Positions 9,601 through 49,111 of a stretch of 59,159 nucleotides of DNA are shown here, in pieces; positions within the stretch are counted from its first letter, which is position 1, and each line of letters opens with the position of its first letter. The stretch is from Porphyridium purpureum (Eukaryota). Both the position numbers and the translations under genes were made by a program. The stretch lies in contig VRMN01000028.1 of the NCBI GenBank assembly GCA_008690995.1, forward strand, positions 1-59,159. Direction: 5' to 3'. A model generated the notes under the pieces. It saw nothing but the letters and a program-made list of their open reading frames with translations, made no database searches and was not told the DNA's origin.

Positions 9601-10408
9601 GCTCTTCACCGACAACGCTGGTAACTCTACCTAGCGCCCTCCGTAAACATATTCGTAATAGCTTGGATTCCAGCTTCTTCAGTTTCCCCGCTGTTCGACT
9701 TGTGATGCCACAACCACTCATCACAGAATTCTGTGTACATTTAAATCGAAGCATCTCTATGGAATCCTCAACGGCTTGTGTATCACTCGATGAACTCTCA
9801 CTGAAAGCACAAGCGAGCGCTGTGAGCGGATCTTTGGGATTTCGTAGGCGAGTGCGGAGCGATTTCGTTGACATCGTAAACTCCCAAATATCCTGACACT
9901 CTTTGCTGACTGCCTTAAAGCTGGATTCCGCGACATCTTCGTCCAAATCGGTTTCGAACGGATCCTTGCGTGCAACGTCCAGCTCTGTGTCCAATCCATC
10001 TTCGACCGAATCTGGCGCGTGCCCGACATTTGTGGAGTCCCTGTTGCCACCACTGTCGTAACCGTAAATAGACTCTTCCCCATCGTCCATGGAATCCTCA
10101 TCGCTGTTGATGTCGAAGTAGTCTTCATGCTCTCCATTGATGCGCTCCTGGACATTGAGCTCGTTGTGACCGCTGTCATGCGTACATGCGTACGCCGGCT
10201 TCGCGATTTGAGTGGATTCCGCAATCACACGAGCCGATGCTTTGCGGGCCTCTACCATCTCTGGAGTCGGATAAAAACAGAATTTTTTGTGGATTCGCAT
10301 TTCAGCATGCACAAGCTTTTGCGTCTTCCACCGCGTATCCTTGATGCGAAACCCGCATCCTTCGTTGACGCACGGGTGCATGTCACCGAACTCGAATCTT
10401 GTCGCCAT
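6659..10408 (-). pseudogene. Plavaka-like transposase with a premature TAG at 6833-6835; probable start MATRFEF at 10408
   Basis: Motifs LPIQVFADEAHMT, LSMDMP, PCQQC, VDGLHGF, WNAPKIHALTHF..GPLKFWDTTDGEK; the frame continues past the stop (TLKPVF...WYFIVNPSLFEDVLTYN*) and matches the C-terminus of ORF 40227..44093 (WYYLLNPSTFEGVLEYN*). Confidence 0.8.
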
Positions 10409-11101
10409 GCTTTTTCCTTTCGCCCTCCAACAAGTATACTCGCGAGCGCACACGTTCACGCACTCTTGCAGACAAAATTTTAGGCCATGTACCGCGTCGC
10501 GGGATTCTAAATACTGACGGTTTAAGGTTGCGGGACTCCACCATCCGGATGATCCAGTCAGTGGGATTTTTCGCGACGTCCCACAGCTCCTGATGTTGCG
10601 CTCACCAAGCCCGCATTTTTCGGCCGAATGGACAGTGGTCGACTGGATTCCCGTAGATTCGAACGAGCCAACGCATGGCGTATCGCTGCGGACACACAGG
10701 TTTGAGTGCGCTGATGTGCGCACCGGTGAAGGCGACGCAAGAGACATGCGATACATCAGTCTCGCCCGAGAGAGCTTGCGTCTCGCTCGGCGTCCCGAAT
10801 CGCATCTCCTCAGACGAATGAATGAGCTGAGTTGGGTGCCAGCTCGCTGGATTGGGAGTCCACTGTGGTTGAACATGAACCACGCTGTGAGTGACTTATA
10901 CAAGGCCTACCTGGAGGAATCGGAATGCTGAGATAAGGATATCACTGAGCGAGTGGACTCCATCCGACCGATAGAGTGGAAGGCAGTGAGACAAATCAGG
11001 ACTCCCTTGGTCGTAAAGGGTTGACATGGCATTGATGATTCCAGACATGTCCGGGACCTCGAGGCGCGGTTTGTGCAGTGGATTTTGAGCATTGAGATGT
11101 T

Positions 11102-17140: not shown

Positions 17141-18292
17141 TTACTGCAGTATTAATTGTGTGTTGATGACGTTGTGTGCCACGAGGCAGTCTGCGGCAAA
17201 CTGTCCCGCCTTCCCACGAGAAGCACGTACCTTTCGGACTCCATGACAGAACTCCGAACAAGGGCCTCGTCCAAATCGAGCACAACTGGAACCCCATACC
17301 TTTTCGTAACACTCAAACGCGCCACGAACCTCGGCCTTTGGAATCCAAGAATAGTTTGACCACGGATACAATGGATTAGCTTCAACATTCCAACACACTA
17401 AAAGATAGGACTCCATCTTTGCCCATACACGGGTCACGACAACATCAGCTACCGACTCAACCGATGAGACATTCATTGGCACACACTTCAGGCGCTGAAT
17501 TACATGCCCAATGCTTGCATTCTGAGAGACTGTTTTCCTGTCGAAGATGGGATGGGCTAGCAGAATATCATTTGGAATCCCCACGTCTAATGCATTAACT
17601 CTCTCGATACGGCATGGCCAGAAGTTCTTGGAGTCCCAGTCAACGATGACAATCCAGGATGCGCGGTGCCATTCTTTTTCTTCCACACTTTTCCTCTTGA
17701 CGCAATTGAAGGTACAATCATAGGAATCCAAATACAGATCCAAGCCACTTTGGGCGTTGGCCAACGACTGACGTACCCAAGCGATTTCCCGGATACCTTT
17801 ATTCCCGAGTTCCTTTGGCAAATGTACAGCTGGACCAACTCTGGGCTTAGCCAACTCACTGAGCTCGCCGAACTGGGTCCCGCGCACTTCCACTAATTGC
17901 ACCAAACGTTGCAGACTCGACTCCATGTCTCCGACAACGACCCCCAATTGCGTGATCTCGGCCTGTAGCTGAGCCATGCGGTTCTCGGCATACATAGACT
18001 GCAAGGCGTACTCCTGCCTATTGGAATCCCTATCACGCCTGGCCAACTCTGCGGTATTCTGTGCCAGAACTGCAGAGTTCAACAAGGATGCGACCCGTGC
18101 CCGCAAGACCTTATTCTCGTCTTCAGCGGAGACCGCTGGGGACTCCGTCGACCCGCCGGACGAGACTTCGGGACTCCCTATACCGCCCTGCCCGCGGACA
18201 ACATTGCGTCCTTCTCCCGGTTCCATCTTGACTTTGTGTGTAGCTTCACGTACATCACGTACGTGCGCGCACCAGCCCGCAGTTCGGTCCAC
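17141..18292 (-). CDS. Accessory protein of Plavaka-like element 1: coiled coil, PWWP-like region, Cys/His tail; start uncertain
   Basis: Colinear similarity to ORF 35118..36074 (AQNTxEL, EYALxSM, VDW..WPxxIER, LVCWNV..YPW.N.SW, RGxFECYE). Confidence 0.75.
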   Translation of the reverse strand: MDRTAGWCAHVRDVREATHKVKMEPGEGRNVVRGQGGIGSPEVSSGGSTESPAVSAEDENKVLRARVASLLNSAVLAQNTAELARRDRDSNRQEYALQSMYAENRMAQLQAEITQLGVVVGDMESSLQRLVQLVEVRGTQFGELSELAKPRVGPAVHLPKELGNKGIREIAWVRQSLANAQSGLDLYLDSYDCTFNCVKRKSVEEKEWHRASWIVIVDWDSKNFWPCRIERVNALDVGIPNDILLAHPIFDRKTVSQNASIGHVIQRLKCVPMNVSSVESVADVVVTRVWAKMESYLLVCWNVEANPLYPWSNYSWIPKAEVRGAFECYEKVWGSSCARFGRGPCSEFCHGVRKVRASRGKAGQFAADCLVAHNVINTQLILQ

Positions 18293-30761: not shown

Positions 30762-30988
30762 GACGAGATGGATCAGCGAGCGAAGATCCTTTGAGCACCT
30801 TCTGATGGTCTGGGGAAAACAAAAACGCGCGCGCCGCGCCTTGGTTCATCGTCATGCTCGATGTGAACAATGTTAAAAAAGAGTTAAAAATAAGCTTTCT
30901 ATTAAAATGGGCTATTTTACTATAAGATCCATTTTTTGGACCAAAATGCAGGTATAAACAGTTAATTTCTGTCTCCGCAAACGGTTTA

Positions 30989-31184
30989 TGTCGCTACCGA
31001 GGTATGTGGGTACAGTTGCCTGCGATATAAGATAGCGGCCGGTCTGGCAAACCTGTGGCGACAGTGGTGGAGAGAGAGAGAGTGGACAGAGAGTAGTAAA
31101 GAGGACTTATAGTTCCCGGCCCATGGTAGCGGGTGAGAGCCCCCCAAAGCTGACTACTCGTCCACACGGAAGATAGCAACAGCA
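30989..31184 (+). repeat. 5' LTR of copia 2
   Basis: Repeat of 48916..49111. Confidence 0.93.
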
Positions 31185-31297: not shown

Positions 31298-31593
31298 ATG
31301 TCTCAGTTAAGCGGATCGGCTCTATCCACCCGCGTGCTAGAGGCACGCGAGTTGACGGAAGAGTACAAAGCACAAATGGCAGACAAGGACACGGCGGAGA
31401 TCTTGGAGTCCCTTCAGGTTATGTTCACCGGCGAGATCATCAAGAATCTGGGGCCTGTCGGCCAGTTCTCATTCTACAGGTGGCTTGTAGACAAAGGAGT
31501 CACGATTCCTGAGAAAGACCATGGTGGGAACATAATCCCTGTTCTTTTCCGCCTTTTACCATTGTTGTCAGTCAGCCAGCGGGATCCGGGATC
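31298..31593 (+). pseudogene. First part of copia 2 gag
   Basis: ATG at 31298; rejoins 44449 in frame (DPGS-TSNV) when the insertion and one TSD are removed. Confidence 0.8.
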
Positions 31594-31644
31594 CAGTCCG
31601 TGTGTTGAATATTTGCCCGTACTTTGAGAACCGAATACACCCAG

Positions 31645-31762
31645 GAAAAACTGACCGAAAAACTGACCGAAAAACTGAAATAAAGTGTAAGCAGGCCAAG
31701 ATCAGCTTTTCGGTCAGTTTTTCGGTCAGTTTTTCGGCCAGTTTTTCGGTCAGTTTTTCGGT
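31645..31762. repeat. Left subterminal 12-bp repeat array in both orientations (AAAAACTGACCG / CGGTCAGTTTTT)
   Basis: About 3 forward then 4 reverse units forming an inverted repeat. Confidence 0.9.
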
Positions 31763-31911
31763 TACGCCCATTACATTTAAGCATTACCCATTTATAAATT
31801 ACTTTCTTAGACATTACCAGATTTTAGAAATTACGTTTCGCGACATTACCAGACTTTGAAACCGGAATCTTTATCGGTTCACTTTTATTTCAAATTTGAG
31901 TCCTTACTTTT

Positions 31912-34563
31912 TTAGAAAAACGCATCCACACAGTCGTCGTCGTTGATCTGTCGATTCGCATCTTGTGCAAGATGGAGGTTAATCTTTTTGTCCGTCAGGA
32001 TGTTGATCAATGAAGATTTACCGTATGCAATCACTGCCTCCCACAATCCGCGGCGCAACTCGACAATGTTGTCTGTATCCGTGTTGATATGTACCATCGT
32101 ACTGTCCGAAAGTATACGAGGCATTGAAGCGACAATATTCTGGATGTAAATTTTGAGGCACTTCGCATCCGACAAAAGTTTACGCTGCTCCATCATCCGG
32201 GTCATGCTGTCGTTGACTAAGCATGGATCGAACTCGTCACTTCTCAATCCGGATCTGTACAACATCGTCGACATCGGAAACGGCTTCCCCCACTGACCAG
32301 GTAAAGATCCGAAGTTGATTCTCTTCAGCGCTTCATTGAGACTCGTCCCCTCTCCGAATGTACGAAGAAAGTCGATGATGTTTCCGTGTTCATCAGTGAA
32401 ACGTTTTGTCGATTTCGGATGAAGAATGTAGTTGGTACGCTCTTTCGACTTCAGCATTCGGTAATGTGTGACAAGTCGCCGTGTTCGTAGATTCTGTGCA
32501 CTGCATGTGACTTGAGCTCCATATATGGAACAATCCGGATTGTCTGAATCATGTGTACAGGAAAGCATATACGATAAAACTGTCGTTACGGCTTGCTCAA
32601 AGTTTCGATTGTCCTGACACTCGGTGATCAATACATCTTCGAAGTCATTCGCTGTCCAGGCAACTGATACGGATTGACGAGTAGGCGTCCTTCCGGATCG
32701 AAGCGAACGCATTGTAGCGTAGAGTAGTGCGTAAATCCGAAGTCCAGTTGCGATAAGCTCAACAAATATCCCTGAATTCGCATCTTCGAAATCGTCGAGT
32801 CTGAGAATGTTGAGATCTTTCAGCGGCCTTGGGATGTGCTTGCAGACGAATGTTGCTGGATTCAGGAATACCGGCCACACTTGATGTCCGATTACGCATC
32901 GTGTCACATGGCGAAGAAGCAGGATGGATTTTTGATCGGATGATAAGTTTGTCTCACCGAGAGATTGAAGAAATGCGTATGTGGTTTCGTCATTAGCATG
33001 TGCATTGTTTGGTAAGTGCGCATCGCTGTTTCGCACGTCGAATGTATGCGACAGCAGAATATTTCCAGCCTTCGGTGACTTGAGCGACAAGCCGACGAAC
33101 AAGTTCTTTCGTATCGTCGTATATATCAGGTTCAATGATCGCTCGCGTGCGGCTCTCAATTCGACGACTTGAATCGTACTCAGCTTTGTCATATCCGTAG
33201 GAATGTATGAGTTACACAAATCACCAATCGTGTCTGATGTATTATTCGAATAGTATGCATTGTACCACGCACCGCTCTTTTGCGTGATTGGTTTTGTCAA
33301 ACCTTCGTCGAGCTTTGATGTGGATGAGCATGCCTTGGATTTGGATCGCTGTCTCATCGAATGTTCTGCATACGCTGGTTCGGATACCTTGCGGTTGTCG
33401 TCTTCATTTCTGCTATGCGCATCGAGTGCAGCCAAACATTCTTCGGTGATAGTCAGTGGTACGAGTGGTGCCGCTCCACTTCGAAAAAATGCGAGAAGAT
33501 CCAAATCACAAATGCTGCCTGGAGTGTATGGTTTAATTCGCGACGTGTTTCGCATCTTCAGTTTAGACTTCTGCTTGAACTGTGAACGGGTATTCGATAA
33601 CGTGAGCGCGACCGTTGCATCTGAGTTGGTCATTGTTATTGTCGCAGCGCCGTCGAATACCGGAGTAGGACGATGAGTCTCAAAAACTGCGTCATTCGCT
33701 TGATCCGGATACGTATTATTCGGATTATCATCGCATAATACGTTTGCCTGTGATGGACTTTCATCCTTGTCCATCGGCGACTGCATTACTTCGGTCTCAC
33801 TTTCGCGAAGTGGTGGTAGCATCGGATGTTGCGGATCAACAGTCTGAGGAAGACCAGTGCATTCAATCGCAGCATATGGTGGGAAACCAGCATCGAGAAG
33901 AGTCAATGACTCATACGGTTCGTCATCTGTACTCGCAGAATTCGTTGGTTTGTGTTTGATCCGAGCAGCCGTTGTCGTCGGTGCCCGTGTTTCCGTGTGA
34001 AGCTGTTGAATCCGCGTGGTATTTGTGTTCGTTCTTGTTGCCAGGTTCGCGGATTTCTTTCGACACTTGCGCTTATTCGGATGGTTGAAGGGCGAGTCAT
34101 TGTCTGTATCGTCAATCCTTTGTGTTGCATTCTTTTCTGTTTCGGCGAATGTATCATATGTGTGGTCAGCGCATGTATTTTTGCCGAACAATTTCAATGC
34201 AGCACAGGTCGTATGCATCGTCTTTTGGCATCCATCTGCTAGACATGTGATTGTGTCGTACTGGTCGTCGTCGGATGCGATTGTATTCGACGAATTCAAA
34301 CGACTGCATTCTCCGGATATGTGAACTGCGAAACACGGTTGCCGATCACTGGCGGTAGTGGGTTGAAGAATCGCATCGGTCGACGCCTTGATGTACCGCT
34401 TTCTTTGAGCTGCCTTCCCGGTCTTGCTCGTTATCTTCTCCAAATCCGTGTTCCCTAGCAATGACGGTGCGTCAGCCTTTGACAGACATCCGGATCTTCC
34501 GCGCCCTTTACGCCGCCCTGAATCCACAGTTTCTTTGTACATCCTTTTACCGATTCCGCGCAT
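31912..34563 (-). CDS. Transposon accessory protein, 883 aa, N-terminal PHD-like zinc finger, unknown C-terminal domain
   Basis: Long ORF; C-x8-C...C-x4-C-x4-H-x2-C...C-x2-H at 34162-34335. Confidence 0.75.
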   Translation of the reverse strand: MRGIGKRMYKETVDSGRRKGRGRSGCLSKADAPSLLGNTDLEKITSKTGKAAQRKRYIKASTDAILQPTTASDRQPCFAVHISGECSRLNSSNTIASDDDQYDTITCLADGCQKTMHTTCAALKLFGKNTCADHTYDTFAETEKNATQRIDDTDNDSPFNHPNKRKCRKKSANLATRTNTNTTRIQQLHTETRAPTTTAARIKHKPTNSASTDDEPYESLTLLDAGFPPYAAIECTGLPQTVDPQHPMLPPLRESETEVMQSPMDKDESPSQANVLCDDNPNNTYPDQANDAVFETHRPTPVFDGAATITMTNSDATVALTLSNTRSQFKQKSKLKMRNTSRIKPYTPGSICDLDLLAFFRSGAAPLVPLTITEECLAALDAHSRNEDDNRKVSEPAYAEHSMRQRSKSKACSSTSKLDEGLTKPITQKSGAWYNAYYSNNTSDTIGDLCNSYIPTDMTKLSTIQVVELRAARERSLNLIYTTIRKNLFVGLSLKSPKAGNILLSHTFDVRNSDAHLPNNAHANDETTYAFLQSLGETNLSSDQKSILLLRHVTRCVIGHQVWPVFLNPATFVCKHIPRPLKDLNILRLDDFEDANSGIFVELIATGLRIYALLYATMRSLRSGRTPTRQSVSVAWTANDFEDVLITECQDNRNFEQAVTTVLSYMLSCTHDSDNPDCSIYGAQVTCSAQNLRTRRLVTHYRMLKSKERTNYILHPKSTKRFTDEHGNIIDFLRTFGEGTSLNEALKRINFGSLPGQWGKPFPMSTMLYRSGLRSDEFDPCLVNDSMTRMMEQRKLLSDAKCLKIYIQNIVASMPRILSDSTMVHINTDTDNIVELRRGLWEAVIAYGKSSLINILTDKKINLHLAQDANRQINDDDCVDAFF

Positions 34564-35117
34564 TCTCCAAATCCCTCCGCGTTGTCAATATCCGCGTTGA
34601 CCTCATGCGCATAGACCTTTGTCTTGTTCACCCGGATCCGCGTGCCACCCCGTCAGCGCTTTGTCCCTTCCGTCCCCTCCGCCTTCTCCGCTCCCTCCAT
34701 CCCCTTCGCTCCTGTCTTTCTTCAGCCGGAATCTACATAGTCCCTCCCGCCCTCTGGTCTGCAGATTAGTTTCCTCGCTTGGCTTAATTTGCGCGCGCTC
34801 AGGCAATAAATCATCAAATGATGTTGTTTTATTATAATTTTGAATATGCATGAAAAGTCATCGAATTGTGATGAGGTATCCGGTTCATACTCAAATAGCT
34901 CTTTTTCATCCATAGCCATTCCTGACTTTGATGTGCATGGCTCACTTCGTTCGTGTGACGAAGTCGAGCATGGGCGTGGATCGTATGAAGGTGTCGAGGT
35001 TCGGGCTCTCTGTGCTTGTGTGTCAGAGGTGACGTTGCGCATGCGAATTGTCGGGCTACAACACACGGATAGGAACTGATACGCGGATATGCTGCCGTCT
35101 TACTCCTAAGCCCAGCA

Positions 35118-36074
35118 ATGTCGGATAGTGAAGAAGTCGATCGACTGCGAACGCAACTCGCTTTGGCGCTTAGTTCGAATATCATTGCTCAGAATACTAC
35201 CGAATTGAAGGCACGAGAATATGCGCTTTATTCGATGATCACCGAGTCCAAGCTCATGAGCGTTGAAAAGGAAATTCAAGGTCTGCGGCGTGATATCGAC
35301 GAGATAATCCGAATGCTCCGCGAACGCGAACGAGATCGTATCGCGGATCCGATTGCTGTGCGGGAACCGAGAAGTGGTGAAAACATACAGGGTGCAGGCT
35401 TCAATACGGACGTTATCTGGATGCGTACGTCTATGATCAATGCACAGCGCAATTTATCCGAGTTTCTGTCGCGGATCAATTGCCGTTACATGGCGTGCCA
35501 GAATTCGCATGTGGTTCCCGAATTGGTCATGGTGGATTGGCCAGTGCAACATTCGGATGGATGGCCTGCCAAGATCGAACGCATTGATGATTTGCAGTAT
35601 CCAATTCCTGAACATGTTTTGTTAGAGCATCCGGCATTCGGTGTACGACAGAAGAGCAAGATTCAGCGTATAAGTCGAGTATACGTTCATTTCCAAGGTC
35701 AAGCGTTGACAAGCGATCTGTTGAAGTTCCATCCTCATCCGGATGCATCTACTGTCTGGTCCAATCTTTTATCGTATATTCTGGTTTGCTGGAATGTCAC
35801 GGGGAGCCGTCGGTATCCGTGGGAGAACTTTTCGTGGGTGACAAAGGAAAAGATCCGTGGGGTTTTCGAATGCTACGAATCGACATACGGCTCTGCCTGT
35901 CTTCGTTTCTGTCATTTGTACGGGTTCGATGAGGTGGACACGGATCCTCCCATAGCGTGCTCTCGCGCATGTACACAAGGTTGCCTTCGTAGGCGTGGAA
36001 GAACCTTGCATGATTTCGCGACTGACTGTAAACGCATGCACGATACGTTGATCCGTATGAAATGTAGCCTTTAA
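35118..36074 (+). CDS. Transposon accessory protein, 318 aa: coiled coil, PWWP-like region, Cys/His tail
   Basis: Homologous to 17141..18292; ELVMVDW..GWPAKI and ILVCW..FSWV.KEKI resemble the PWWP strands. Confidence 0.78.
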   Translation: MSDSEEVDRLRTQLALALSSNIIAQNTTELKAREYALYSMITESKLMSVEKEIQGLRRDIDEIIRMLRERERDRIADPIAVREPRSGENIQGAGFNTDVIWMRTSMINAQRNLSEFLSRINCRYMACQNSHVVPELVMVDWPVQHSDGWPAKIERIDDLQYPIPEHVLLEHPAFGVRQKSKIQRISRVYVHFQGQALTSDLLKFHPHPDASTVWSNLLSYILVCWNVTGSRRYPWENFSWVTKEKIRGVFECYESTYGSACLRFCHLYGFDEVDTDPPIACSRACTQGCLRRRGRTLHDFATDCKRMHDTLIRMKCSL

Positions 36075-36138
36075 TAAAACATCTTGGACGAAATCTAGGT
36101 CTACTTCACATTAAAATGTATGCTCATATCGGATCATT

Positions 36139-37173
36139 TCACTCGATCGAATGCGAGTCGTTGTCCAGCATTGCCATATCTTCAGCCAAAGTATCCGCCT
36201 CTTTATACGATTCCGCTGCTGCATTCCATTCGTCCCTGCACTGGTCGTGGGCAAGCGTGAACGCTTCAAAGCTTCCGGATGAAGGTACAAGAACACAATC
36301 CTGGATTATCTTTTTCAATGCAATGTTCGACCTGCTGTAGCGCGTGCCCGGCGCGAGCTCTGCACGGATGACCTGGAGTATGCGGTGCTTGAATCCGATG
36401 AAACTCTTATTATGCTCCTCGGCCAATTCGAAATACTTGCTGGCAAGCTCCGTTCGGAGCTTGCGATTCATCTGACCGATCCTCATCGAGGTCTCTTCCC
36501 CCGTATGCCGCATTCTTGACCATGTCGTTGTTCTACGCGAAATGAGTCCATCCGGTTCGAAGAGAATTCGAAGCTTGATCAGTTCATCCGATATCGTGCG
36601 CACTTGTCCGTAGTCAGCGTATTCGGACATAGCGTCAATATCAGGATCTCTCATACGTTGCTGAAAACCATTGTTGCTCAGATCCTTGGGCTCGACGAGG
36701 ATCTGCCACGAATGCAAGAAATGTGGCGTCGGATTCAACCACATCAATACTTCTGGCACATTTGCAAATATCGCAGCCGTACAAGAATCCGTATGCATCG
36801 TCCTAGTGATTGAATCAATGTATCCGGGTGAGAGCCATACGCGCGGTGGCATTTCCCATGGTCTTGCCGACGTTCGACGGCGACGCGAACCCACCTTGTA
36901 TTCGTCTTCGTCATCTTCCACCGGATTCTCAGCACGACGAAATAGATCCCATGTAAATTCGACAATCGCTGGAACTGCACGAACGAAGTATTCGATGATA
37001 TCATTCATTGCCGGATCATGCTTTTCGTAGTCCTTGAATACATATCGGCTCTGAAACTGGTCCACGATCTGCCGCGTGATACGAATTTGAGCTGCAAAGT
37101 AATGCCATGCGATGTGATAGCGTGCGACCCACAGTCGTGCATGAAGTTCGCTGAATCGATTATACTGGTCCAT
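36139..37173 (-). CDS. Transposon accessory protein, 344 aa, unknown function
   Basis: ATG-initiated ORF with protein-like composition, tightly packed between neighbours. Confidence 0.7.
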   Translation of the reverse strand: MDQYNRFSELHARLWVARYHIAWHYFAAQIRITRQIVDQFQSRYVFKDYEKHDPAMNDIIEYFVRAVPAIVEFTWDLFRRAENPVEDDEDEYKVGSRRRRTSARPWEMPPRVWLSPGYIDSITRTMHTDSCTAAIFANVPEVLMWLNPTPHFLHSWQILVEPKDLSNNGFQQRMRDPDIDAMSEYADYGQVRTISDELIKLRILFEPDGLISRRTTTWSRMRHTGEETSMRIGQMNRKLRTELASKYFELAEEHNKSFIGFKHRILQVIRAELAPGTRYSRSNIALKKIIQDCVLVPSSGSFEAFTLAHDQCRDEWNAAAESYKEADTLAEDMAMLDNDSHSIE

Positions 37174-37197
37174 TCGAAAGCTCCTTCCGTGTTTATC

Positions 37198-39819
37198 CTA
37201 ATCAGCGTGATGGCGCGTTACATCGAATACAGGCCATTGCCTCCTCCATTCAATCACACTTTCTACTCGCACCTGGAACGACGGCCAGTAGGCACAGATC
37301 TCATGGAATGCAGTAATCGTATGCACGCTCGATAGGTACGAACCACTCGGATAACCATTCATTGTATCCATTTCTGGCGAGAAGCTCGTGGAGGTATCCG
37401 AATATTTTCTGAGCACCTGGTCATACGCGAAAACATCAATTTCCTTTGTTTCAGCGAGCAACATTCGCCGCGTCACTTGATTCCGACCGAATCCAACCCT
37501 GGCATCCATCGACCGTTTGTAATACGCATGTTCATATGCTGCTTCGATGCATCGTTGTTCTTGATCACCCCCCATCGTTTTCTTCCGGCACAACAAGAAT
37601 CGATGTGCGTATCGGATGCCACGCAGCACATCCTGAAGAGGATGAACCGGAAGGCGCTCCACAGTGCCAATCGGATTCGTATACACATCTTCGTAAGAGA
37701 AATCATCGCATGAACATCCGTATCGAGAATCACATTTGTTTCCCATCGAAGCCGTATGCGTGTATCGACATGGTCTGTATGCCATACAGGCAAGCGCGCC
37801 TTGGACTGCGCAAGTCACCGCATACCATTCGTTGGCTAGAGATTCAAAGTGACCTAAGGCATCAAATCCACGTCGCATCTCCGCTGGTTGCATTAATTCC
37901 GTATTATCCATCGGATGTGCAAATCGGAGCCTTGCGTACGCATTATTCATATTCAAGGCATTGATACGGATTAGATCCCAGAGCATTGCTGTATCTCTCA
38001 GCATCCATGAAAACATGCCGCTATCCGCTATCGTGAAGCCGGTTGGGTCTGATGGATGATTCATCACCCGAATAATATAATCCTCGGATGCAAACTTTCG
38101 TCCTCGGTAACCCGTCGTCTTCTTCGTCGCCAGGTGGGGTACCTCCTGAATGAGGTACGCACCGATATCCGCGTGCAGGAATTGACAGTCATCCGAAGTA
38201 AACGCGAATTCATCCGTAAAGTATTCGTCTACTGTGTAGTTGCTGAACAGCAGCGCATTCGGAAGCTCTGCACCGTTATAGTCTTCGCGTGGAGAGTCTT
38301 CGCACGGAGTGACTTCGAAAAATTCGAGCCCGGTCAGACCGTCGGTGAAGTTCTGATGCGGATCTTTGTTCTCGAACGACCATGCCGTAAGCATTCGCAT
38401 GTAGAAGTCGACGTTCAGAATCACATCCAAAAGATGCAGACCCACCTTGTCATTTTCCTTGGCCTCTATGTGAATGGCCTTATACGTATTCTCACTTGCA
38501 TCCTTGTACATCGCACTGAATCGATCTATGATGTCGTAATGCGAAAAGCCTCGTCTGATGGACTTAGGTTGCTGCATCGGATGACTGCTTCGACCGAGAG
38601 TGCACGTATCTGTCCGTGCACGCTTCGGATCCTGACGTGAAGCAAATATCCCAGGCACATTTCGGATATCACTTCGAATTTCTCCTCGGATATAGCTAGG
38701 TCCCGGATCGTCTTCGCGGCTGTATGAAGCCGTGTCATACTTGACATTCCCATATCCGCGGGGAATCTGTCCCGGGCGCGGGAGCGAACTGCTTCCTCGC
38801 CTTTCGAATGGCGCACGGTACGTTCCGGATCCAGAACCACTTGGCATATCGATTCTACCATACCCAGGCGGGCCTCGTAGCGTTTTCTGGGTATTCGGAT
38901 TCAGCGCAGCGGCCCCAAGTCGCAGCGAACTCGCCGAATTACTACGGATGAGTCCACCACGAATGCGACGGCTGCGCTCATCAGCATCCGATGCTTCACT
39001 ACTTTCGATCGAATCTGACATTCGTCGTTTCCCTTTGTCAACAGTCGAGACCCTTTTCGATCGCCGAGTATTCGGATTTACGTCAGACTCAGCATGCTGT
39101 CCTGAAGGTGCGTTCGAATCACGCAAATTCGTTTCAGGCGTTCTCTTGACACGCATATCCGTATCCATTTTCGCAGCGTCCAACGAATCTCCGGATGCAT
39201 ATTTCTCTGCACCAGCACCTGCTGCAGGTAGTCCGGTATCCGCTGGAACGTGTCCGCGCAATGCTCTTGCCGACACACTCTGCGAATCCGACGACACAGA
39301 AACCGCGCGAATCGGAGATCGACGGCCAACACTGGACATGGGTGTGGTCGACTTCTTCGCAGTATCCGAAGCCTTTCCCACGATATCGGACGGTTTCGCA
39401 CCGACGTCCTTCACTGGATCCTCCTTCGGATTTGCACCGACGTCCTTCACTAGATCCTCCTTCGGATTCGTCTCCGCGTCCGCGCATTTCGCACCAATCG
39501 GATCACCTACTGCAACCGTCTCAGCTGAAGCCGTAGCTGGCGCGGACTCCGACGGCATTTTTTCCACATCCCTCTCAACTTCATCATTCGGATGACCTCT
39601 GACGGCTGCCTTCAGTTTCGACGATGCTCCACGCACTGCCGAACCCTGACCCGCACCGGACGCACGCCCAGGCTCCACCTTTTTCGTCGCCGCCGGATTC
39701 GTCGCTTTACCCCCCTTGCCCTGCGCACTTCCGGATACCACTTTCCTTCCTTTCGACGGATTCGGATCCGCCACTTTCTTCCCGGTGTTCTCCATCTCGT
39801 CCCGCTCACCACCACTCAC
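37198..39819 (-). CDS. Transposon accessory protein, 873 aa: low-complexity N-half, globular Cys/His-containing C-half
   Basis: Long ORF divergent from the transposase; includes a 12-aa tandem repeat NPKED(L/P)VKDVGA. Confidence 0.75.
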   Translation of the reverse strand: MSGGERDEMENTGKKVADPNPSKGRKVVSGSAQGKGGKATNPAATKKVEPGRASGAGQGSAVRGASSKLKAAVRGHPNDEVERDVEKMPSESAPATASAETVAVGDPIGAKCADAETNPKEDLVKDVGANPKEDPVKDVGAKPSDIVGKASDTAKKSTTPMSSVGRRSPIRAVSVSSDSQSVSARALRGHVPADTGLPAAGAGAEKYASGDSLDAAKMDTDMRVKRTPETNLRDSNAPSGQHAESDVNPNTRRSKRVSTVDKGKRRMSDSIESSEASDADERSRRIRGGLIRSNSASSLRLGAAALNPNTQKTLRGPPGYGRIDMPSGSGSGTYRAPFERRGSSSLPRPGQIPRGYGNVKYDTASYSREDDPGPSYIRGEIRSDIRNVPGIFASRQDPKRARTDTCTLGRSSHPMQQPKSIRRGFSHYDIIDRFSAMYKDASENTYKAIHIEAKENDKVGLHLLDVILNVDFYMRMLTAWSFENKDPHQNFTDGLTGLEFFEVTPCEDSPREDYNGAELPNALLFSNYTVDEYFTDEFAFTSDDCQFLHADIGAYLIQEVPHLATKKTTGYRGRKFASEDYIIRVMNHPSDPTGFTIADSGMFSWMLRDTAMLWDLIRINALNMNNAYARLRFAHPMDNTELMQPAEMRRGFDALGHFESLANEWYAVTCAVQGALACMAYRPCRYTHTASMGNKCDSRYGCSCDDFSYEDVYTNPIGTVERLPVHPLQDVLRGIRYAHRFLLCRKKTMGGDQEQRCIEAAYEHAYYKRSMDARVGFGRNQVTRRMLLAETKEIDVFAYDQVLRKYSDTSTSFSPEMDTMNGYPSGSYLSSVHTITAFHEICAYWPSFQVRVESVIEWRRQWPVFDVTRHHAD

Positions 39820-40226
39820 GCACCCGCACTGTCCACCGCGCTACCGCCCTCTCCGCCTTGTCCGCCTTCCCAGCGCTTCCCACCTTCGCACAACCCACCT
39901 TCTCCGGATCACACCAACTTCCCCACACGATCTGCTCTTCGCCCCACGGCCACTGCGGCCTGCGCGTTTGACTTGTATCGAATTTGATGGACCCAAATGA
40001 AAAAAATGGCAGAATTGAATGGCATGTGGGGTTTTGTCGGGAAAATTACGCATTCACAGAGAGAAAGCTTTATATTAACTACCTCTTTGGCTTGCCGTGG
40101 TACAAACGCTACGCCTGCGTCCAGGAAAGACGCGTGCGTCGGATTGACGGAAGGCTTTGGAGGCGGAACGGATACAGCGTGACGTGCGCGAAAACATACG
40201 GATAGGAAGACTTCCCCAAACCGCGA

Positions 40227-43200
40227 ATGGACAGACAGCAAGGCCTCGAGAGCAACGCTTGGCATCGACGTAGAAACAAACGTATCCGATGCGATGGGAC
40301 CCGATGCGACTTCACCGTACCAGAGGATGAGGGATTGACTTACTCCACGCGACTTCACATGATGCAGTCACACAAGCGCAAGTGTAAACTTCGCATGCAT
40401 CCGAATCGACTCCCGTATACGCAGGCCTACTTATTTGATGCGGACGACGGTAGTTTGCAGAGGGAGGACAGTCCGGATGATACGGGAAGCGCAAATACAG
40501 AAACGCGGACTGGACGAGGCAGTGAGCTTCCTGATATCCGGATGGATGACGAGGACCCGGAAATGCAATTTCATTCGGATCGTGACATTGACAGCGGTTG
40601 CGAGAGCTTGCATGCAAACCTGACACAGGATGCGGAAATGTATCTAAGACCGATGGAGCCGGTGCGTGGCGGAGAAGAAGGAGAAGAGCAAGTCGAATAT
40701 ATCTTAGGTCCGTATGCCAAGCACTTTAATGCGTTATTAAACCAAAAGACTTTACGAGAGCGCTTGCAAGATCGTGACGACGAGATGTCAAAATTCGTAC
40801 GGAGTCTGACAGGCGCGGGTGAAATGGAAGATGTTGATCTGGATGAAGCAATCGAGATGATACGATTTAAAAACGACCAGGAAGTATTCATCCAGAAGCA
40901 TGGGATATCCGTACGTCATGCCACGGACTTAAAGTCGATTGAAGCCAAACTCTTACGAATTGCTATCCGTATGACTCTGCGCCAAGTAAGCCAGCTGACA
41001 AAACACTCATTTACCATGTTGAAAAGGTATCCGTTAAACCACGAGGCGTCTCGAATCGACGCTGTATACGCTGCATTACAAAGCAAATTGAACATAGCTT
41101 CCTCTCACGTGCTGAAACGAGCAACAAAACTTCTTTTCACATTCAGATCTTCGAAGCGGATGTCTTCGCTTCTTGGCAATCCGAGTATTAAACCTGTTGA
41201 GACGTACGTCGAGTATGGTCGCGGAATCCGACTGAGACGAAACACCCTACGCCGGAACGTGAAGCAAACGATCCGATTTCGTGAACCGATGGACATCGTC
41301 ATGCGTTCAGCTGCAGCTATTATTGATGAATACGGATTGGAGCCATTCGTTATCGACTTATTCAAAACCCGGGATCGCGAAATAGTGATGCATCCGCAGG
41401 ATGGAAACCTCTGCATCAGCGCAGCCCGTCGGATAGAATTTGAAGTGAATCGAAAACATGGACCGGATCCACCTCAGGTTGTAATTCTTCCAATACAGAT
41501 ATTTGCGGATGAGTCCCATATGACCCAGAATGGACGACACACAGTGACGCCACTGAAGATACGAATAGTACATCGAAGGCTGTTTGATACACACTCTTCC
41601 CGTATTCCTCAAGTCGTCGCATACTTACCACCTGTGGATACCCGAAGTATTGCACGAGCATTTGGTGAGGAAACAAGTATCCGCATTGATCCGAAGCTAG
41701 CCAAAAGAGAGCTCGAATCGTCCATGTACCATGCAATTATGAATAAGGCATTCCACCATCTCATGATCGCGAATAAATTCGGAGTGCCAGTCCTGTGGAA
41801 TCATCGCCGCTTGCTTCTTTTTCCTATTGCATACAAGTTGTCAATGGACATGCCGATGATCTCAAAATGCTCATTTACGAAAGCTTCTTTTGTATCCGGA
41901 TCCCGTGCTCGAACCATGCCATGCCATCAATGCATGGTGATAGCGCCAGAGGCCACAACTCGAGCAGTCGAAGCAGGACCAAATTCGGATGCATCCAAGG
42001 CAGAAGAGTTCTGGATTACGCGTATTCCTCTGCAATATCGCTGTGAGAAGCAGGTTGAACCTTTCATCACGCAGAATTTATCTGCATGGGGCACGCTACA
42101 GAGAAAAGAACAATCTCTCCACTTTCTCGGTGACTCAGCGGCTATCGGATGGAATCGATTTGATGATGACGATGACGTTGCATTCAATGCAACGATATCC
42201 GCATTCAAACACAAAATACATCTGCGCAACCGCGGGAGATTTCAACTGACAGGCATAGATGGCTTGCACGGATTCCTTGCATTTTGGCTTCGAGGTATCA
42301 CAATCGCTGGTCTCAAAGCATTGCTGAGCAAACCGAATACTGTACACGAGGTAGGCCTCGTCGCTGAGAGACTCACGGAAGCGCAGCAGCGAGCTACGCG
42401 ACACTTGAACGAAGTAGAACATTCGGATTTTCCACGCATGTGGGCTTCACTCGATTTCGATGAACAAAGACATGGAAGTGCATCCGAAGATACCAGTGGC
42501 GATGATTCAGAGTCGCATGACGAATACTCTTCGGATGATGACATTGTCCGCGCGAATGAAAGAAATTCGTCACAAACGAATACACGTCAAAGACCAAAGG
42601 CCAAAGCAAAGACGAACGACTCTCACATCAATCCGAGGAGGGCAGAGTCCAACAGAAAGGGCAGCGTATCTGACCAACTTCGAGGTATCATCGACTCAGC
42701 AGCAGGTAAAGCTTGGAACCAAATTGCGACGGAGATAACGGATGAGGCGAGGTTCCGGCGACCAGCGACATACTCTCCGATACGATTATCTTCGTTTTTA
42801 TCCGACTTACCCAAATTCGCAGAACAATCATATTCGCTGGGCTTTCTACTTCAAATGATTGTTCTTGTACACCAGGAGCATTTACTCTCGGATCGTACAC
42901 GTGAAAGCTTTACCGAACTTGCAACCAGATGTATCCGACTGTATGGCGTACTATACAAAGAAAAGCTGCGTCGACCATGGCTTGAACTCATCCCAAGGCT
43001 CACATCCGACTTGCAATCCCGACTCGATTCATACAAGCGGCAGATCAATCTACGTTGGAATGCTCCGAAAATACATGCACTGTCTCACTTCGGGGACAAC
43101 TTGACGGATCTGGGACCGATAAAGTTTTGGGATACTACGGATGGAGAGAAATCGTTTCAAATCGACAAGGCGTGGTTCAAATCACTGGTCAGCGCAGATA

Positions 43201-44093
43201 CGAATATCCCACATAATGTCATGCTGCAGCGCGCAGAGGTGTTCGAAATCGGATCTTCTTCTTCGTACTGGTTTGATAAGCTTGCAAGGAACAAGGATTC
43301 GAATGCAATTGCATACACACACGAACAAGTATCCGATGAAGCATACACACATACACGAGAATCGGATGCCGCTCGAGCGTGGTACCGGCACCGCTCGTCT
43401 TCTGTGAACTGTTCATCGATCCTTTTCGGAATCTGGCAGAACGCGTGCACTACTCTGAGGTACAGCAGCGAATCCGGATTCGAGGCTGCCCCTTCATGGC
43501 GACCAACATCGTGGAACCCTTCTATATCATTCGAATCCGCTGATGACGAAGAAACGAACATGCTCTGGTTGCACACGGATACGGCTTTGAAGACGTATGC
43601 ATCCGAGAAACTCCAAACGGCTGTGAATGATGGTACTGCAACCTTCCAAGCTTTCAGACAAGTTCAACTGAAAAAGCCTCGCGACGAAGCCGAATGCATT
43701 GTTGCACATCCGAATCACTATCGTTCTCCGAGATGGGACATTCTCGAATACGCACTACAAACTGGTCACCCTGAACGCCACGGATATGGAAAATGCATCC
43801 TAATTGTCCGGATCAAATTACAGGGACCTTACGACGAATCCTTTGACGTGGTGGTGATACAAGATTTAGAGGCGCACGATGGAGAAATCGAAAAGTCAGA
43901 GTGCAAATGCAAATGCAAGCGCCTAGATCCGGTGTTTCATCATTACCGACTCAGTAATAATTCGGTAAAAGTATTGGACACAGAAACGATAACCGGGCGA
44001 GTGACAGCATTCAAGGATATCCGCATGAAGGACAGCCGATGGTACTACCTTTTAAACCCAAGCACATTCGAAGGCGTACTAGAATACAATTAA
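40227..44093 (+). CDS. Plavaka-like transposase, intact, 1288 aa
   Basis: ILPIQIFADESHMT, LSMDMP, PCHQC, IDGLHGF, WNAPKIHALSHF..GPIKFWDTTDGEK match the Plavaka pattern as I recall it (D..DxP..CxxC..DxLH..PKxH..H..G....T..E); N-terminal C-x4-C..H-x3-C. Confidence 0.82.
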   Translation: MDRQQGLESNAWHRRRNKRIRCDGTRCDFTVPEDEGLTYSTRLHMMQSHKRKCKLRMHPNRLPYTQAYLFDADDGSLQREDSPDDTGSANTETRTGRGSELPDIRMDDEDPEMQFHSDRDIDSGCESLHANLTQDAEMYLRPMEPVRGGEEGEEQVEYILGPYAKHFNALLNQKTLRERLQDRDDEMSKFVRSLTGAGEMEDVDLDEAIEMIRFKNDQEVFIQKHGISVRHATDLKSIEAKLLRIAIRMTLRQVSQLTKHSFTMLKRYPLNHEASRIDAVYAALQSKLNIASSHVLKRATKLLFTFRSSKRMSSLLGNPSIKPVETYVEYGRGIRLRRNTLRRNVKQTIRFREPMDIVMRSAAAIIDEYGLEPFVIDLFKTRDREIVMHPQDGNLCISAARRIEFEVNRKHGPDPPQVVILPIQIFADESHMTQNGRHTVTPLKIRIVHRRLFDTHSSRIPQVVAYLPPVDTRSIARAFGEETSIRIDPKLAKRELESSMYHAIMNKAFHHLMIANKFGVPVLWNHRRLLLFPIAYKLSMDMPMISKCSFTKASFVSGSRARTMPCHQCMVIAPEATTRAVEAGPNSDASKAEEFWITRIPLQYRCEKQVEPFITQNLSAWGTLQRKEQSLHFLGDSAAIGWNRFDDDDDVAFNATISAFKHKIHLRNRGRFQLTGIDGLHGFLAFWLRGITIAGLKALLSKPNTVHEVGLVAERLTEAQQRATRHLNEVEHSDFPRMWASLDFDEQRHGSASEDTSGDDSESHDEYSSDDDIVRANERNSSQTNTRQRPKAKAKTNDSHINPRRAESNRKGSVSDQLRGIIDSAAGKAWNQIATEITDEARFRRPATYSPIRLSSFLSDLPKFAEQSYSLGFLLQMIVLVHQEHLLSDRTRESFTELATRCIRLYGVLYKEKLRRPWLELIPRLTSDLQSRLDSYKRQINLRWNAPKIHALSHFGDNLTDLGPIKFWDTTDGEKSFQIDKAWFKSLVSADTNIPHNVMLQRAEVFEIGSSSSYWFDKLARNKDSNAIAYTHEQVSDEAYTHTRESDAARAWYRHRSSSVNCSSILFGIWQNACTTLRYSSESGFEAAPSWRPTSWNPSISFESADDEETNMLWLHTDTALKTYASEKLQTAVNDGTATFQAFRQVQLKKPRDEAECIVAHPNHYRSPRWDILEYALQTGHPERHGYGKCILIVRIKLQGPYDESFDVVVIQDLEAHDGEIEKSECKCKCKRLDPVFHHYRLSNNSVKVLDTETITGRVTAFKDIRMKDSRWYYLLNPSTFEGVLEYN

Positions 44094-44184
44094 AAGACAA
44101 AGTCCGATGAAGTCTCATCTTCTCATGATTGAAATTATTCGCTACCACCCATCTCGCAAACTTTAAAGTTGCAGACAGTATCGA

Positions 44185-44426
44185 GCAGTTTTTCGGGCAG
44201 TTTTTCGGGCACTTGATTTTGCAGCCTTTCTTTATTGCCTAGTAAATCGCTGTACGCACGGAAAGTCTACTGTACCTACAGTTTTTCGATCAGTTTTTCG
44301 ATCAGTTTTTCGACACTTCAGTATGACAGTTTTTCGAACGCTGCGAGAGAGGTACAGCAAATAGCTGTACTTTACATGCTTACATCAATTTCAGTTTTTC
44401 GTTTAGTTTTTCGGTCAGTTTTTCGC
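44185..44426. repeat. Right subterminal repeat array (CAGTTTTTCG core)
   Basis: About 9 units in clusters at 44185-44210, 44279-44337 and 44392-44425. Confidence 0.88.
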
Positions 44427-44446
44427 TCCATTTGTGTCACGGACTG

Positions 44447-47400
44447 TCCACTTCTAATGTGCAGGCTACATTCGAGGTGGGGAGTATGGAAATCCAATCT
44501 GACAACGACAGGTCCGACGTGCCATACACTGATGGTACATCTCAAGGAGCGCGCGTTGCTATGAGCAAAAGCGAGGAAACCTTCATGAGACGCTACAGTG
44601 CATTCACCAAGGCATATCAGAGTGTAGATTCAAAGTTCTACGGTACCGACGAGGAAAATTTCGCCGCATGGCGAATGCAACTCGTAAATCATTTAGCTCT
44701 ACACAATCTGGATGATCAGTACACTGCACAGGTGATCCAAGCCTGTCTCGCAGGCGATGCTCTGACGTTTTATCTTGGGACGTATGTTGACGAAGATTTG
44801 ACAAAGTTCACCATAGCAGATGTTCTGGTGGGCTTAAGGGACCACTTTTACACCATCGAGAAGCTTGAACGCCTGCAGGAGCAGTGGGAAAAGGCAAACT
44901 TCGCGGAATTCCAGGCTAACAATTCCAATATCTCTGAAGTGGAAAATTGTAAGTCTTTGACCCAAAGACTCAAAAGAATCCAGCCAAATTTGAAAAAACC
45001 ATACAGATCCCATGAAATGCTACGTGACAAGTATAAGCAAATCATGTTCAGACATCCCGTATACGAGCGCCTCGTCATGACCCCGCTGCCAACATCGGCT
45101 GACGCACTATGCAGCAAAATTGAAGCCTTGCTTCTGCATATGCAACCCAGTACAGTCTCGCCCAAGCCGCAGCTTGCTTTCACTGCGCAGCAGACGTCAA
45201 GGGCACCTATGGCTCAGCCGAATCACTCGGTGACTCTGTATCAAGAGCGATACAGGCGTTCGCGTGCAAAACCGCAGGCTAATCGGGCAAGATCTACTCC
45301 TCGACCGATTAGCATCGCATCCGCCAGCAATCCTCGTACGGCAAACGGCACACAGCTTCTTTGCGACATTTGCCAATCCGAAAAACATTTTCGGCGGTTC
45401 TGCCCCGACAAGGAAGCCAAAAGGAAATTTTATACTGCAAATTCAAACTACATGGTGGCAGATTTTCTAGGCTCCGACTCTTCTTCGGGTGCAGACGCAA
45501 GCGACAGCACCGACGATGTCACTCACACAGACCTCGTTTGGCTTTCGCCAAGTCTTGTTCTTTTTCAACATGACACCGCTTTTGTTATTGTCGACAGCGG
45601 CGCTAGCGGTGGAAACTTAGTGGGTGAACGATTCTGTCAAGCCCGACAAACCGTCCAAGTTACAGCCCCGCCAAGACGCGTAAAAATGGGCACAAGTGTC
45701 TTCGACACTCGCGGTCAAGCCAAAATTGTCATGCTAGACATAGGTGGAGCAAAGCTCGAATTCTTTGCTGATGTCATACAACTTGACATCCCACCACTTC
45801 TTGGATGGCGCGAGCAAAAGGCGCGACACATGACAGTGGACGCGGGCGCCGGCATATTAACGGCCCTTGCCGACAGCGAACAGCTCAAATTTAGGGTCCA
45901 CACAATTGCTGGTCTCCCTTGCATTTTACTTCCAAATCCAGAAAATCCAGATTCGGTCAAAGAGCAACGTGATGATATAGTCCTGTTCACTGCTACAGAA
46001 TTGCGCAGATTACACGTGCACTTTGGGCACGCACATCTCGACAAAATCCGCGATCTGTTGCAGCGCAGTGGTCAACGTCTGACTTCTGCCGAAATTCGCT
46101 GGTATGCAGATATCGTACAGAAGTGCAAAGCTTGCCAATTCTACGCGGATGTACCACGGCGCCCCATTGTGGCCATGCCAGTCAACCCTTTCTTCAACCG
46201 CGATATCGCCATAGACACTGTATACTTCGACGGCCTCGCTGTGCTACACATTGTGTGCAAAGGAACCAAATATGCCAGGAATCCTATTTTACGACGCACG
46301 GATGCGGTAACCGTCATCAGTACGTTCTATACTTCTTGGATCACCATCTTCGGCATTCCGGCCACATTATCCATGGACCGCGGTACTGAGTTTCTGAATG
46401 CAGCTTTACTCGAATTCTGTGATGGACTCGGCATTGTGATGCGTCCAGCCGCGACTGCAGCAGCCTGGTCGATAGGTATCGTGGAACGACACCATAAGCC
46501 CCTGAAAACTGTGTAATTCCGCTTGAAAACAACATTCCCAGACCGCGATTGCGAATTATTGCTCGCACAAGCAGAATTTGCACTGAATGCCACGCTTGGC
46601 AACCGTGACACATGTCCATTTTTACTGGTCTTCGGTCAATTACCCGTGTTCACGCTTGGCACAGTCCAGGACCAACACAAAATGACTACAGACCGCCATA
46701 TGGCTATGGAAGTCGCGCGTAGAACGACCGAAGGTATCATTGCTACCAGGCGCATTCGCGAGGCAACGCACATAAGCGTTTCAAAAAGCGCACCAGCTTT
46801 GCTGAGCCGTGGAGACCGGGTGCTGTTCTGGCGCCCAAGTGAGAGAGCTTGGGTCGGACCCGCGACCGTGGTCCATGTACACGGAGATGCGAAAACGGTA
46901 AAAGTTGAATACAAAACGCGGAACTACCACCCAGCTCTCCACCAAGTCAAATTGTTCGTCGCGGATCAAGTGCTATGGGCCGACGAGACTGAGACTTTCT
47001 CCAAGATTCTGCAAGTATCAGAACATTCACTCAGAAGAAAATGTGACTTTACGATATCGCGCGCCAAAGAAATCGATGGATGGCATGCAAAGGGCGTAGT
47101 GGAAGCCGTTCGCACGACAGAGCGCGCGAATCTAGACACGCGGTGGGTGGACTCCATCAAACTTTCAGATGGAAAAGAGTTCCCGAAATCACGTCTCGCC
47201 TTGCGAGAGTTTGCAAAATCGCAACCACATGGTTCCATGCTTCGAGACTCACCTACGACATCACGATGGACTGTGCGCGTTCTGCTCTCAGTAGCACTTA
47301 ATCAATCATGGTCCATATCATCCTCGGACGTCGAACAAGCCTTTCTTCAGAGCCAGCCTCTGAAACGTCGCGTTTTGGTGCAACCTCCAAAAGAAGCTGG

Positions 47401-48915: not shown

Positions 48916-49111
48916 TGTCGCTACCGAGGTATGTGGGTACAGTTGCCTGCGATATAAGATAGCGGCCGGTCTGGCAAACCTGTGGCGACAGTGGTGGAGA
49001 GAGAGAGAGTGGACAGAGAGTAGTAAAGAGGACTTATAGTTCCCGGCCCATGGTAGCGGGTGAGAGCCCCCCAAAGCTGACTACTCGTCCACACGGAAGA
49101 TAGCAACAACA
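48916..49111 (+). repeat. 3' LTR of copia 2
   Basis: Repeat of 30989..31184, followed by GTTTA. Confidence 0.93.

Follow-up and report, generated by a model that had tools for sequence, protein, structure and literature searches.

Element A is a DNA transposon of 12,853 bp that lies at positions 31594..44446 of contig VRMN01000028.1 of the unicellular red alga Porphyridium purpureum (assembly GCA_008690995.1), the whole 59,159 nt of which were analyzed and are called the window here. The element, to which no strand is assigned, is 86% coding and most likely carries four genes in total, namely a transposase and three accessory genes. Accessory gene 1 (31912..34563, minus strand) encodes 883 amino acids (aa) with a conserved orphan C-terminal domain at aa 345-883, and accessory gene 2 (35118..36074, plus strand) encodes 318 aa with a predicted long N-terminal helix (coiled coil) and a possible PWWP-like region at aa 111-252. 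Accessory gene 3 (36139..39795, minus strand) is one frame of 1218 codons with a single internal TAG at 37198-37200, and the transposase gene (40227..44093, plus strand) is a stop-free frame for 1288 aa, with a core at about aa 321-1021 and a BAH-like region at about aa 1061-1275. The element is inserted into a copia retrotransposon, the 5' and 3' long terminal repeats (LTRs) of which occupy 30989..31184 and 48916..49111, both on the plus strand, with pol domains at 44486-48484.

Element A is real and complete, and its ends are exact. It is bounded by 9-bp terminal inverted repeats (TIRs), CAGTCCGTG at 31594..31602 on the plus strand and its reverse complement, CACGGACTG, at 44438..44446 on the minus strand, so that the termini begin CAGTCC. 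Outside them, the sequence and the empty-site joint described below give a 2-bp target-site duplication (TSD), TC, at 31592..31593 and 44447..44448 (plus strand). Subterminal arrays of a 12-bp unit lie just inside the ends, with 2.8 and 5.1 copies in opposed orientation at 31645..31762 and three clusters of the same unit at 44181..44425; a 10-mer of the unit, with one mismatch allowed, has 22 matches in the window, of which 17 fall inside the two array regions. By analogy with known elements, these arrays are likely to be binding sites of an element-encoded protein. When element A and two further bases are excised in silico, the upstream host frame is open across the junction over 825 codons; among offsets of 0-3 bases, offset 2 alone keeps the frame, and 0, 1 and 3 fail. 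The corresponding empty site, a joint 31591->44447 that skips 12,855 bases (12,853 + 2), occurs in 4/4 DNA contig runs and 3/3 RNA read runs, and is absent from the listing for a fifth contig run (X6).

The host copia has GTTTA flanks on both sides and contains RVT_2 and weak rve domains (Pfam). Its LTRs are identical at 195/196 positions, the one mismatch lying 3 bases from the LTR end; alternatively, the repeats may be taken as 193 identical bases. Because the host LTRs are nearly identical and near-identical copies of the element exist, element A is taken to be recent. The TIRs, the 2-bp TSD with restoration of the copia gag frame, the subterminal arrays, the intact 1288-aa transposase and the recent insertion into a young copia had all been proposed in the initial annotation of this contig, and each of them was confirmed by these results.

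In an alignment of ten proteins that includes the transposase, D541, C566-x2-C569, D678-x2-H681, H950-x3-H954 and E974 are found in 10/10 and D428 in 9/10. From their position in this motif pattern, D428, D541 and E974 would be the catalytic residues. An AlphaFold2 model of aa 321-1288 (mean predicted local distance difference test, pLDDT, 66; predicted template modelling score, pTM, 0.67) was closest in structural comparisons to RAG1 (PDB 9jpu; Z 13.5, root-mean-square deviation, rmsd, 4.5, 410 residues aligned), followed by ProtoRAG (PDB 6b40; Z 12.4) and HzTransib (PDB 6pqx; Z 10.5, rmsd 5.0, 355 aligned), and RAG1 was also the best Foldseek match (prob 0.97, E 0.018). Nearly all of the top matches outside the RAG/Transib group were BAH domains, which correspond to the last 215 residues of the transposase (best match ORC1 BAH; Z 8.0, rmsd 3.4, 129 aligned). 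Plavaka transposases carry a C-terminal BAH/BAM domain according to the Pfam description, which was unconfirmed in the literature searched.

For the accessory proteins, nothing significant was returned by Pfam, NCBIfam, PDB sequences or the ESM Atlas. The C-terminal domain of gene 1 (aa 345-883) is 50% identical to FVE85_4587 of a sister family described below, and a Cys/His cluster near aa 78-128 gave sub-threshold Pfam matches to PHD (E 0.081) and SLX1_C (E 0.018; 120-aa piece). In the Atlas, gene 1 had no match at or above 0.9, and no value for gene 1 or gene 3 exceeded 0.81, which lies in the range that shuffled proteins give. Gene 3 has a low-complexity N-terminus, and no known domain was matched. 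The helix of gene 2 is followed by a predicted strand-strand-insert-strand-strand arrangement with aromatic W/Y residues conserved in three families. A PWWP domain was suspected in gene 2 from the alignment and model ahead of the fold search, in which PWWP domains then accounted for 8/11 of the matches listed (Z 2.6-3.0, aa 111-252, model pLDDT 57); the Pfam PWWP family did not match gene 2. The PHD-like identity of gene 1, from sequence, and the PWWP-like identity of gene 2, from the model, are treated as weak leads only. Structure prediction, which had been suggested beforehand for each open reading frame (ORF), gave a RAG1/Transib-like fold for the transposase and a weak PWWP-like hint for gene 2. 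Within the lengths searched, genes 1 (aa 345-883) and 2 had no homologue outside P. purpureum or away from these elements.

The CMCT (EnSpm/Transib) clade is defined by 5'-CA..TG-3' termini, a TSD of 2-5 bp, a D-D-E triad with C(2)C and H(3-4)H motifs and a RAG1-like fold, according to the available text of the defining study (PMC12730594). Element A has CA..TG termini (CAGTCCGTG..CACGGACTG), a 2-bp TSD, the motifs and a RAG1/Transib-like predicted fold, and on every feature tested, from sequence and model, it belongs to this clade. A closer assignment was not provided by profile searches. The Pfam check for Plavaka or EnSpm that had been proposed with the initial annotation came out negative, as no family passed for the transposase, nine relatives or five sub-regions. 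The Pfam Plavaka model (PF18759) was unmatched by the transposase at E <= 0.05 and by the nine relatives and five sub-regions at E <= 10, in a search where HMMER filters drop weak matches and no positive-control Plavaka protein was run. A phmmer search with aa 321-1038 against 1.84 billion representatives found 12 proteins, five from P. purpureum and seven JGI/ENA records, none of them named as fungal or seaweed. None of the element's proteins had a significant match in NCBIfam or among PDB sequences, the sequence searches run did not bring up a single reference protein of Plavaka or EnSpm, and no relatives of the element loci were confirmed in metagenome contigs, viral contigs or prokaryote genomes.

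The strongest competing explanation, to which we give somewhat less than an even chance, is that element A is an ordinary Plavaka member too diverged for the Pfam model, and perhaps already present in Repbase or in the supplements of red-algal surveys. In agreement with this explanation, and as in Bostrychia, element A is giant, carries three accessory genes, has CA..TG termini and makes a 2-bp TSD; its predicted BAH-like C-terminal region may point the same way. Moreover, the available portion of a study that describes Plavaka across Archaeplastida reports it for red algae on the basis of NR and WGS data (PMC13519894). However, no Pfam family was matched and none of the 12 phmmer matches carries a fungal or seaweed name; furthermore, the cargo has no methylase or SET domain, and the ends are unlike those given for fungal PlavakaA (TGT..ACA) and PlavakaB (CATCA..TGATG) in the accessible text, although the 2-3-bp TSD of Plavaka is shared (PMC12730594). 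With the fungal Plavaka A and B groups, element A shares CA..TG termini, a TSD within 2-5 bp, the D-D-E, C(2)C and H(3-4)H motifs and the predicted RAG1-like fold, as far as that text describes them, whereas it begins CAGTCC, has no detected TET/JBP cargo and matches neither the Pfam model nor fungal proteins. The term 'Plavaka-like' in the initial annotation is supported as regards EnSpm/Plavaka kinship, but not by Pfam or by the termini. From sequence, Plavaka membership is unproven and there is resemblance only; element A would function in the manner of a giant Plavaka/EnSpm element, but its lineage is distant in sequence and may stand inside or beside Plavaka.

The nearest described system is the giant Plavaka of Bostrychia moritziana and other Florideophyceae, of 17.4-19.1 kb and with accessory genes PAG1-3, in which PAG1 is of unknown nature, PAG2 combines a methylase and SET, PAG3 combines ParB and a 2OG oxygenase, and PAG1 and PAG3 have no InterPro domains, as given in the available part of the preprint (bioRxiv 10.1101/2025.02.11.637652). 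The same part reports Plavaka only in Bangiophyceae and Florideophyceae, from a screen anchored on PAG2, with mostly degenerate giant florideophyte copies and no mention of Porphyridium in the main text. Together with the Archaeplastida report (PMC13519894), it makes the view that Plavaka is mainly fungal, on which the initial annotation had relied, outdated. Like these elements, element A has a red-algal host, a giant size, an EnSpm-type DDE transposase, three accessory genes and a proposed role in chromatin or DNA modification; unlike them, as far as the preprint describes them, it measures 12.9 kb, resides in a host outside the Bangiophyceae and Florideophyceae, and has intact, near-identical copies. 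The domains of PAG2 (N6-adenine methylase PF01555 and SET PF00856) had no match in any accessory protein in Pfam or NCBIfam, and the ParB/2OG-oxygenase of PAG3 was not seen in Pfam, PDB-sequence or Atlas searches of the cargo, among which no profile-profile search was made. Giant repeats flanked by Plavaka are also described for Amoebidium in the available part of a further preprint (bioRxiv 10.1101/2024.01.08.574619).

Element A was also compared with two better known groups. It resembles plant CACTA/En-Spm elements in that it has a short TIR, tandem and inverted arrays near the ends, derivatives with internal deletions and extra non-catalytic genes. Plant CACTA/En-Spm elements have a CACTA/CACTG terminus, a 3-bp TSD, a short TIR, subterminal arrays and alternatively spliced TnpA/TnpD; element A, unlike these, has no CACTA terminus, a 2-bp TSD, no Transposase_21 or TnpA-type Pfam match, and three nearly intron-free accessory genes in place of TnpA/TnpD. 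With RAG1, ProtoRAG and HzTransib it shares the predicted fold of the catalytic core, but the identity is 7-9%, a BAH-like C-terminal domain is added, the TSD is 2 bp whereas that of RAG1/Transib-type elements is 5 bp, and no RAG2-like partner was detected. Searches of the literature on Plavaka, and on Porphyridium with CACTA/EnSpm, found no description of this family, although its sequences may be present in the supplementary files of PMC13519894 or of the Bostrychia preprint; searches on EnSpm with BAH and chromodomain, and on EnSpm with PWWP, found nothing. As far as paper and protein searches reach, Repbase and Dfam being outside their scope, this lineage is new, and so are its cargo and the class of its host. 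To that extent the family itself appears undescribed, as the initial annotation had suggested, but the giant cargo-bearing kind was already known.

Relatives of element A were surveyed from locus tags and Logan contigs. FVE85_4214 is a separate A-type locus (96% identity over 1123 aa), the gene model of which then enters copia gag. FVE85_9445 and FVE85_9447 (88% and 82%) represent a deletion derivative of the A type, which fits a joint 37852->42770 in contig run X1; this joint skips 4917 bp and marks an internally deleted derivative, as expected of non-autonomous partners. Contigs of X1, X3 and X4 aligned over 35886-37852 and from 42770 onward show a subfamily about 86% identical to element A. 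A sister family comprises five transposase models on five contigs (FVE85_2738, 8722, 9359, 4585 and 4208), which are 51% identical to that of element A and mutually 98.7-99.1% identical in the three pairs compared. Homologues of gene 2 (FVE85_2739, 8721, 9360 and 4586) bear tags consecutive with the sister transposases at four loci, and the fifth sister model has a gene-2 homologue as its N-terminus, so that gene 2 travels with the transposase at 5/5 loci. Co-travel of the accessory ORFs, the lack of which had been named beforehand as a refuting result, was observed for gene 2 (ORF2). At one sister locus, the following tag is that of the gene-1 homologue FVE85_4587, the one member examined of a four-member cluster. 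Between gene 2 and the transposase of the sister family no gene is annotated, and gene 3 is annotated in family A alone; this largest gene looks dispensable. Further transposase families of P. purpureum, P0023/P0028 and P0024/P0029/P0030 (two and three near-identical members), are 22-27% identical to that of element A. Ten or more public models of this alga that are labelled 'hypothetical protein' are transposases of this lineage.

A third family is represented in the window itself by element B, which lies on the minus strand and keeps the gene order of element A. Its transposase (6662..10906, minus strand; 35% identical to that of A) has an internal stop at 6833-6835, and a decayed gene-3 remnant resembling the 3' part of the gene lies at 10518..10928 on the plus strand (E 5e-6 within the window). 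Its gene-2 homologue (17141..18226, minus strand; 361 aa, 30%) is split from the transposase by a copia at 11102-16866, with LTRs at 11102-11334 and 16634-16866 (97%). The ends of element B were sought in the window and not found; repeated motifs near 6117-6350 may represent its right end. Gene 2 accompanies the transposase in all three families examined, and its identity to gene 2 of element A is 54% in the sister family and 30% in element B, against 51% and 35% for the transposase; for gene 1, the identity to the sister family is 48%. The identities of accessory proteins and transposase fall in step, and genes 1 and 2 are therefore regarded as long-term parts of the lineage, co-inherited under selection.

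The element also appears to differ in position between samples. Contigs of 4117 and 5849 nt in X1 match element A with no differences. Right flanks other than that of the window, beginning exactly at 44446, occur in all five contig runs, reading AG in X1, X3, X4 and X6 and CT in X5; one loose end at 44447 in X4 reads TT, and on the left side the flanks finish in AG (X4) and GT (X6). These readings come from 23 of 129 and 9 of 19 loose ends listed, with left and right flanks unpaired. In each of X4 and X5, the empty site is spanned without a break by one contig, which reaches at least 255 bases beyond it on its shorter side; in X1 and X3 this side has only 26. The insertion would thus be present in some samples and absent from others, as judged from contigs, which can drop rare variants. 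The flanks differ and the insertion is apparently absent from X4 and X5, and therefore separate insertions since the samples diverged are indicated. Contig depth in X1 was 225-365 over the element and 169 over the copia, and was not used as a copy number.

Taken together, we consider it probable, with good confidence, that element A is a complete four-gene DNA transposon of P. purpureum in a young copia, that it likely moves by cut-and-paste, and that genes 1 and 2 are likely helpers, possibly acting on chromatin. In the mechanism that we propose from the motifs, the predicted fold and the biochemistry of EnSpm, Transib and RAG, the transposase would bind the 9-bp ends, cut via D428/D541/E974 and insert with a 2-bp stagger. 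An element protein would bind the 12-bp subterminal arrays, which would help to pair the ends; in En/Spm, TnpA pairs the ends via subterminal sites. Genes 1 and 2 are long-term parts of the lineage, with gene 3 annotated in family A only and left as a remnant in family B. As for the helper role itself, the BAH-like end of the transposase, the PWWP-like gene 2 and the PHD-like finger of gene 1 might read histone marks, and in this way direct new insertions towards chromatin rich in repeats or protect the element against silencing; we offer this tentatively and lean against it on balance. Silencing of transposons by H3K27me3 is on record for a unicellular red alga, as cited in the available part of the Bostrychia preprint (bioRxiv 10.1101/2025.02.11.637652).

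Several points weigh against this interpretation. The RNA signal is very low: in three runs of one study, with 10.9, 12.9 and 12.7 million records, 38, 360 and 99 reads fell on 15.2 kb, about 2.3 kb of which is copia. It is also partly antisense; assuming a library of the common stranded kind, the X22 signal is sense over gene 2 and the 3' portions of genes 1 and 3, and antisense over the central part of the transposase. Element A looks largely silent in these RNA samples, and footprints of excision were not seen. Three contigs (406,628, 583,409 and 40,834 bp) encode genes 1 and 2 identically, and proteins from outside the element recur on them as well; several of the assembly 'copies' are probably duplicates of the whole nested region; in addition, the sister family was judged by locus tags, not DNA. 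On the structural side, no match for either the transposase or the gene 2 model reached a Foldseek E of 0.001, mean pLDDT is low for both models (66 and 57), and the BAH assignment at Z 8.0 is borderline. The gene 2 PWWP matches lie under the level that the tool terms 'common', and a wide structural search gave coiled coils alone; the gene 1 PHD match is sub-threshold, and the sister-family gene 1 model is without that region.

Some of these observations would also be expected if the family were recent but now silent or dead, its copies arising from segmental duplication or assembly haplotigs and not from ongoing transposition. The proteins recurring around the copies on the three contigs, RNA near background, the run of the FVE85_4214 model into copia gag and the broken state of element B all suit such a history, but it leaves the differing flanks at 44446 among contigs and samples, and the apparent absence of the insertion from X4 and X5, to be accounted for, and we regard it as fairly unlikely. 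The claim that the element is potentially active accordingly stands as regards the differing flanks and near-identical copies, but is not supported by expression or by excision.

It is distinctly improbable, in our view, that the accessory genes are passive cargo, that is, captured host genes or decaying leftovers without a role in transposition. The very low RNA and the condition of gene 3, with its stop or intron in A, its remnant in element B and no annotation in the sister family, would fit this idea; however, genes 1 and 2 are open and conserved like the transposase across families that are about 50% diverged, and no homologue was found away from the elements in the lengths searched. Furthermore, among 30 strain variants in the ORFs, a small subset hand-picked from those listed and classified, 14 were synonymous and none created a new stop, which gives weak support to constraint on the ORFs. 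The broadest proposal, that element A represents an unnamed CMCT lineage apart from Plavaka that became giant independently in unicellular red algae via chromatin readers instead of modifying enzymes and still moves between strains, is put forward as doubtful and clearly unlikely to hold in full; if true, it would mean a reader-based route to target choice or to escape from silencing. With element A, the range of giant cargo-carrying EnSpm/Plavaka-like transposons is extended to a unicellular red alga outside the two classes of the Bostrychia study, and the set of cargo genes is another one. The published giants are mostly degenerate, which makes their accessory genes difficult to test, whereas intact, near-identical and apparently polymorphic copies in an easily cultured alga make the function of such genes testable.

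The number of genes differs from that first given. Besides the transposase, frames of 883, 318, 344 and 865 codons are present, and the initial annotation accordingly described five genes with four intact accessory ORFs. However, ORF4 (37198-39795) and ORF3 (36139-37173) belong to the one frame of gene 3, and the own ATG of ORF3 lies 8 codons (24 nt) past the TAG. A variant at base 37199 turns this stop into a sense codon in X3 (583/1512 depth), X4 (1416/1768) and, at all depth, X5 and X6, whereas X1, the possible source sample, is without it; in RNA, the variant is present in one of the two covering reads (in X23 and not in X22). Alternatively, a 66-nt GT-AG intron at 37165-37230 would give a protein of 1196 aa, and two public models join the ORFs in this way; no spliced joint over gene 3 is listed in RNA, where a depth of about 1-2 is too thin to show splicing. 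The count of four genes is adopted because ORF3 and ORF4 share a frame with a single TAG that is a sense codon in 4/4 other DNA samples. That they are two separate genes is very improbable: ORF3 has its own ATG, one public contig annotates the two ORFs apart and element B resembles only the ORF3 part, but 24 nt between ORFs in a shared frame leave no room for a promoter, and the sense codon in the other samples and the other public models join them.

The surroundings of element A form a nest of retrotransposons and Tc1 elements, which, being a single locus, shows no insertion bias. Two Tc1/mariner elements (DDE_3) at 18343-25385 and 29435-30953 are 97% identical and in opposite orientation. 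Inside the first lies a gypsy element, whose LTRs near 19726 and 24908 share 98-100% identity. The second has no matching right end beside the copia, and a lone Tc1 terminus lies at 52137-52165. A HEAT-repeat gene inside the nest (25734-27911, 725 aa) was considered as cargo and rejected, having no similarity to the accessory genes. At 29406-29432, preceded by TT and followed after about 27 bp by Tc1, a 14-bp stretch matches the left terminus of element A at 13/14 positions and may be where a further member of the family ends; a match of the same quality, 13/14, occurs at 5821 and in its duplicate at 58425, in LINE-like DNA, so that chance is possible. Both ends of the contig carry a direct duplication of 3.9 kb (2674-6555 and 55273-59159; 94% identical, in parts 100%), which contains a LINE-like reverse transcriptase region and sequence beyond the element B transposase, and may be a tandem segmental duplication or an assembly artefact. 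Finally, positions 1-1777 of the window consist of 16 tandem copies of a 111-bp unit encoding 37-aa repeats, with a frame break near 330-560; these repeats resemble Sel1-like repeats.

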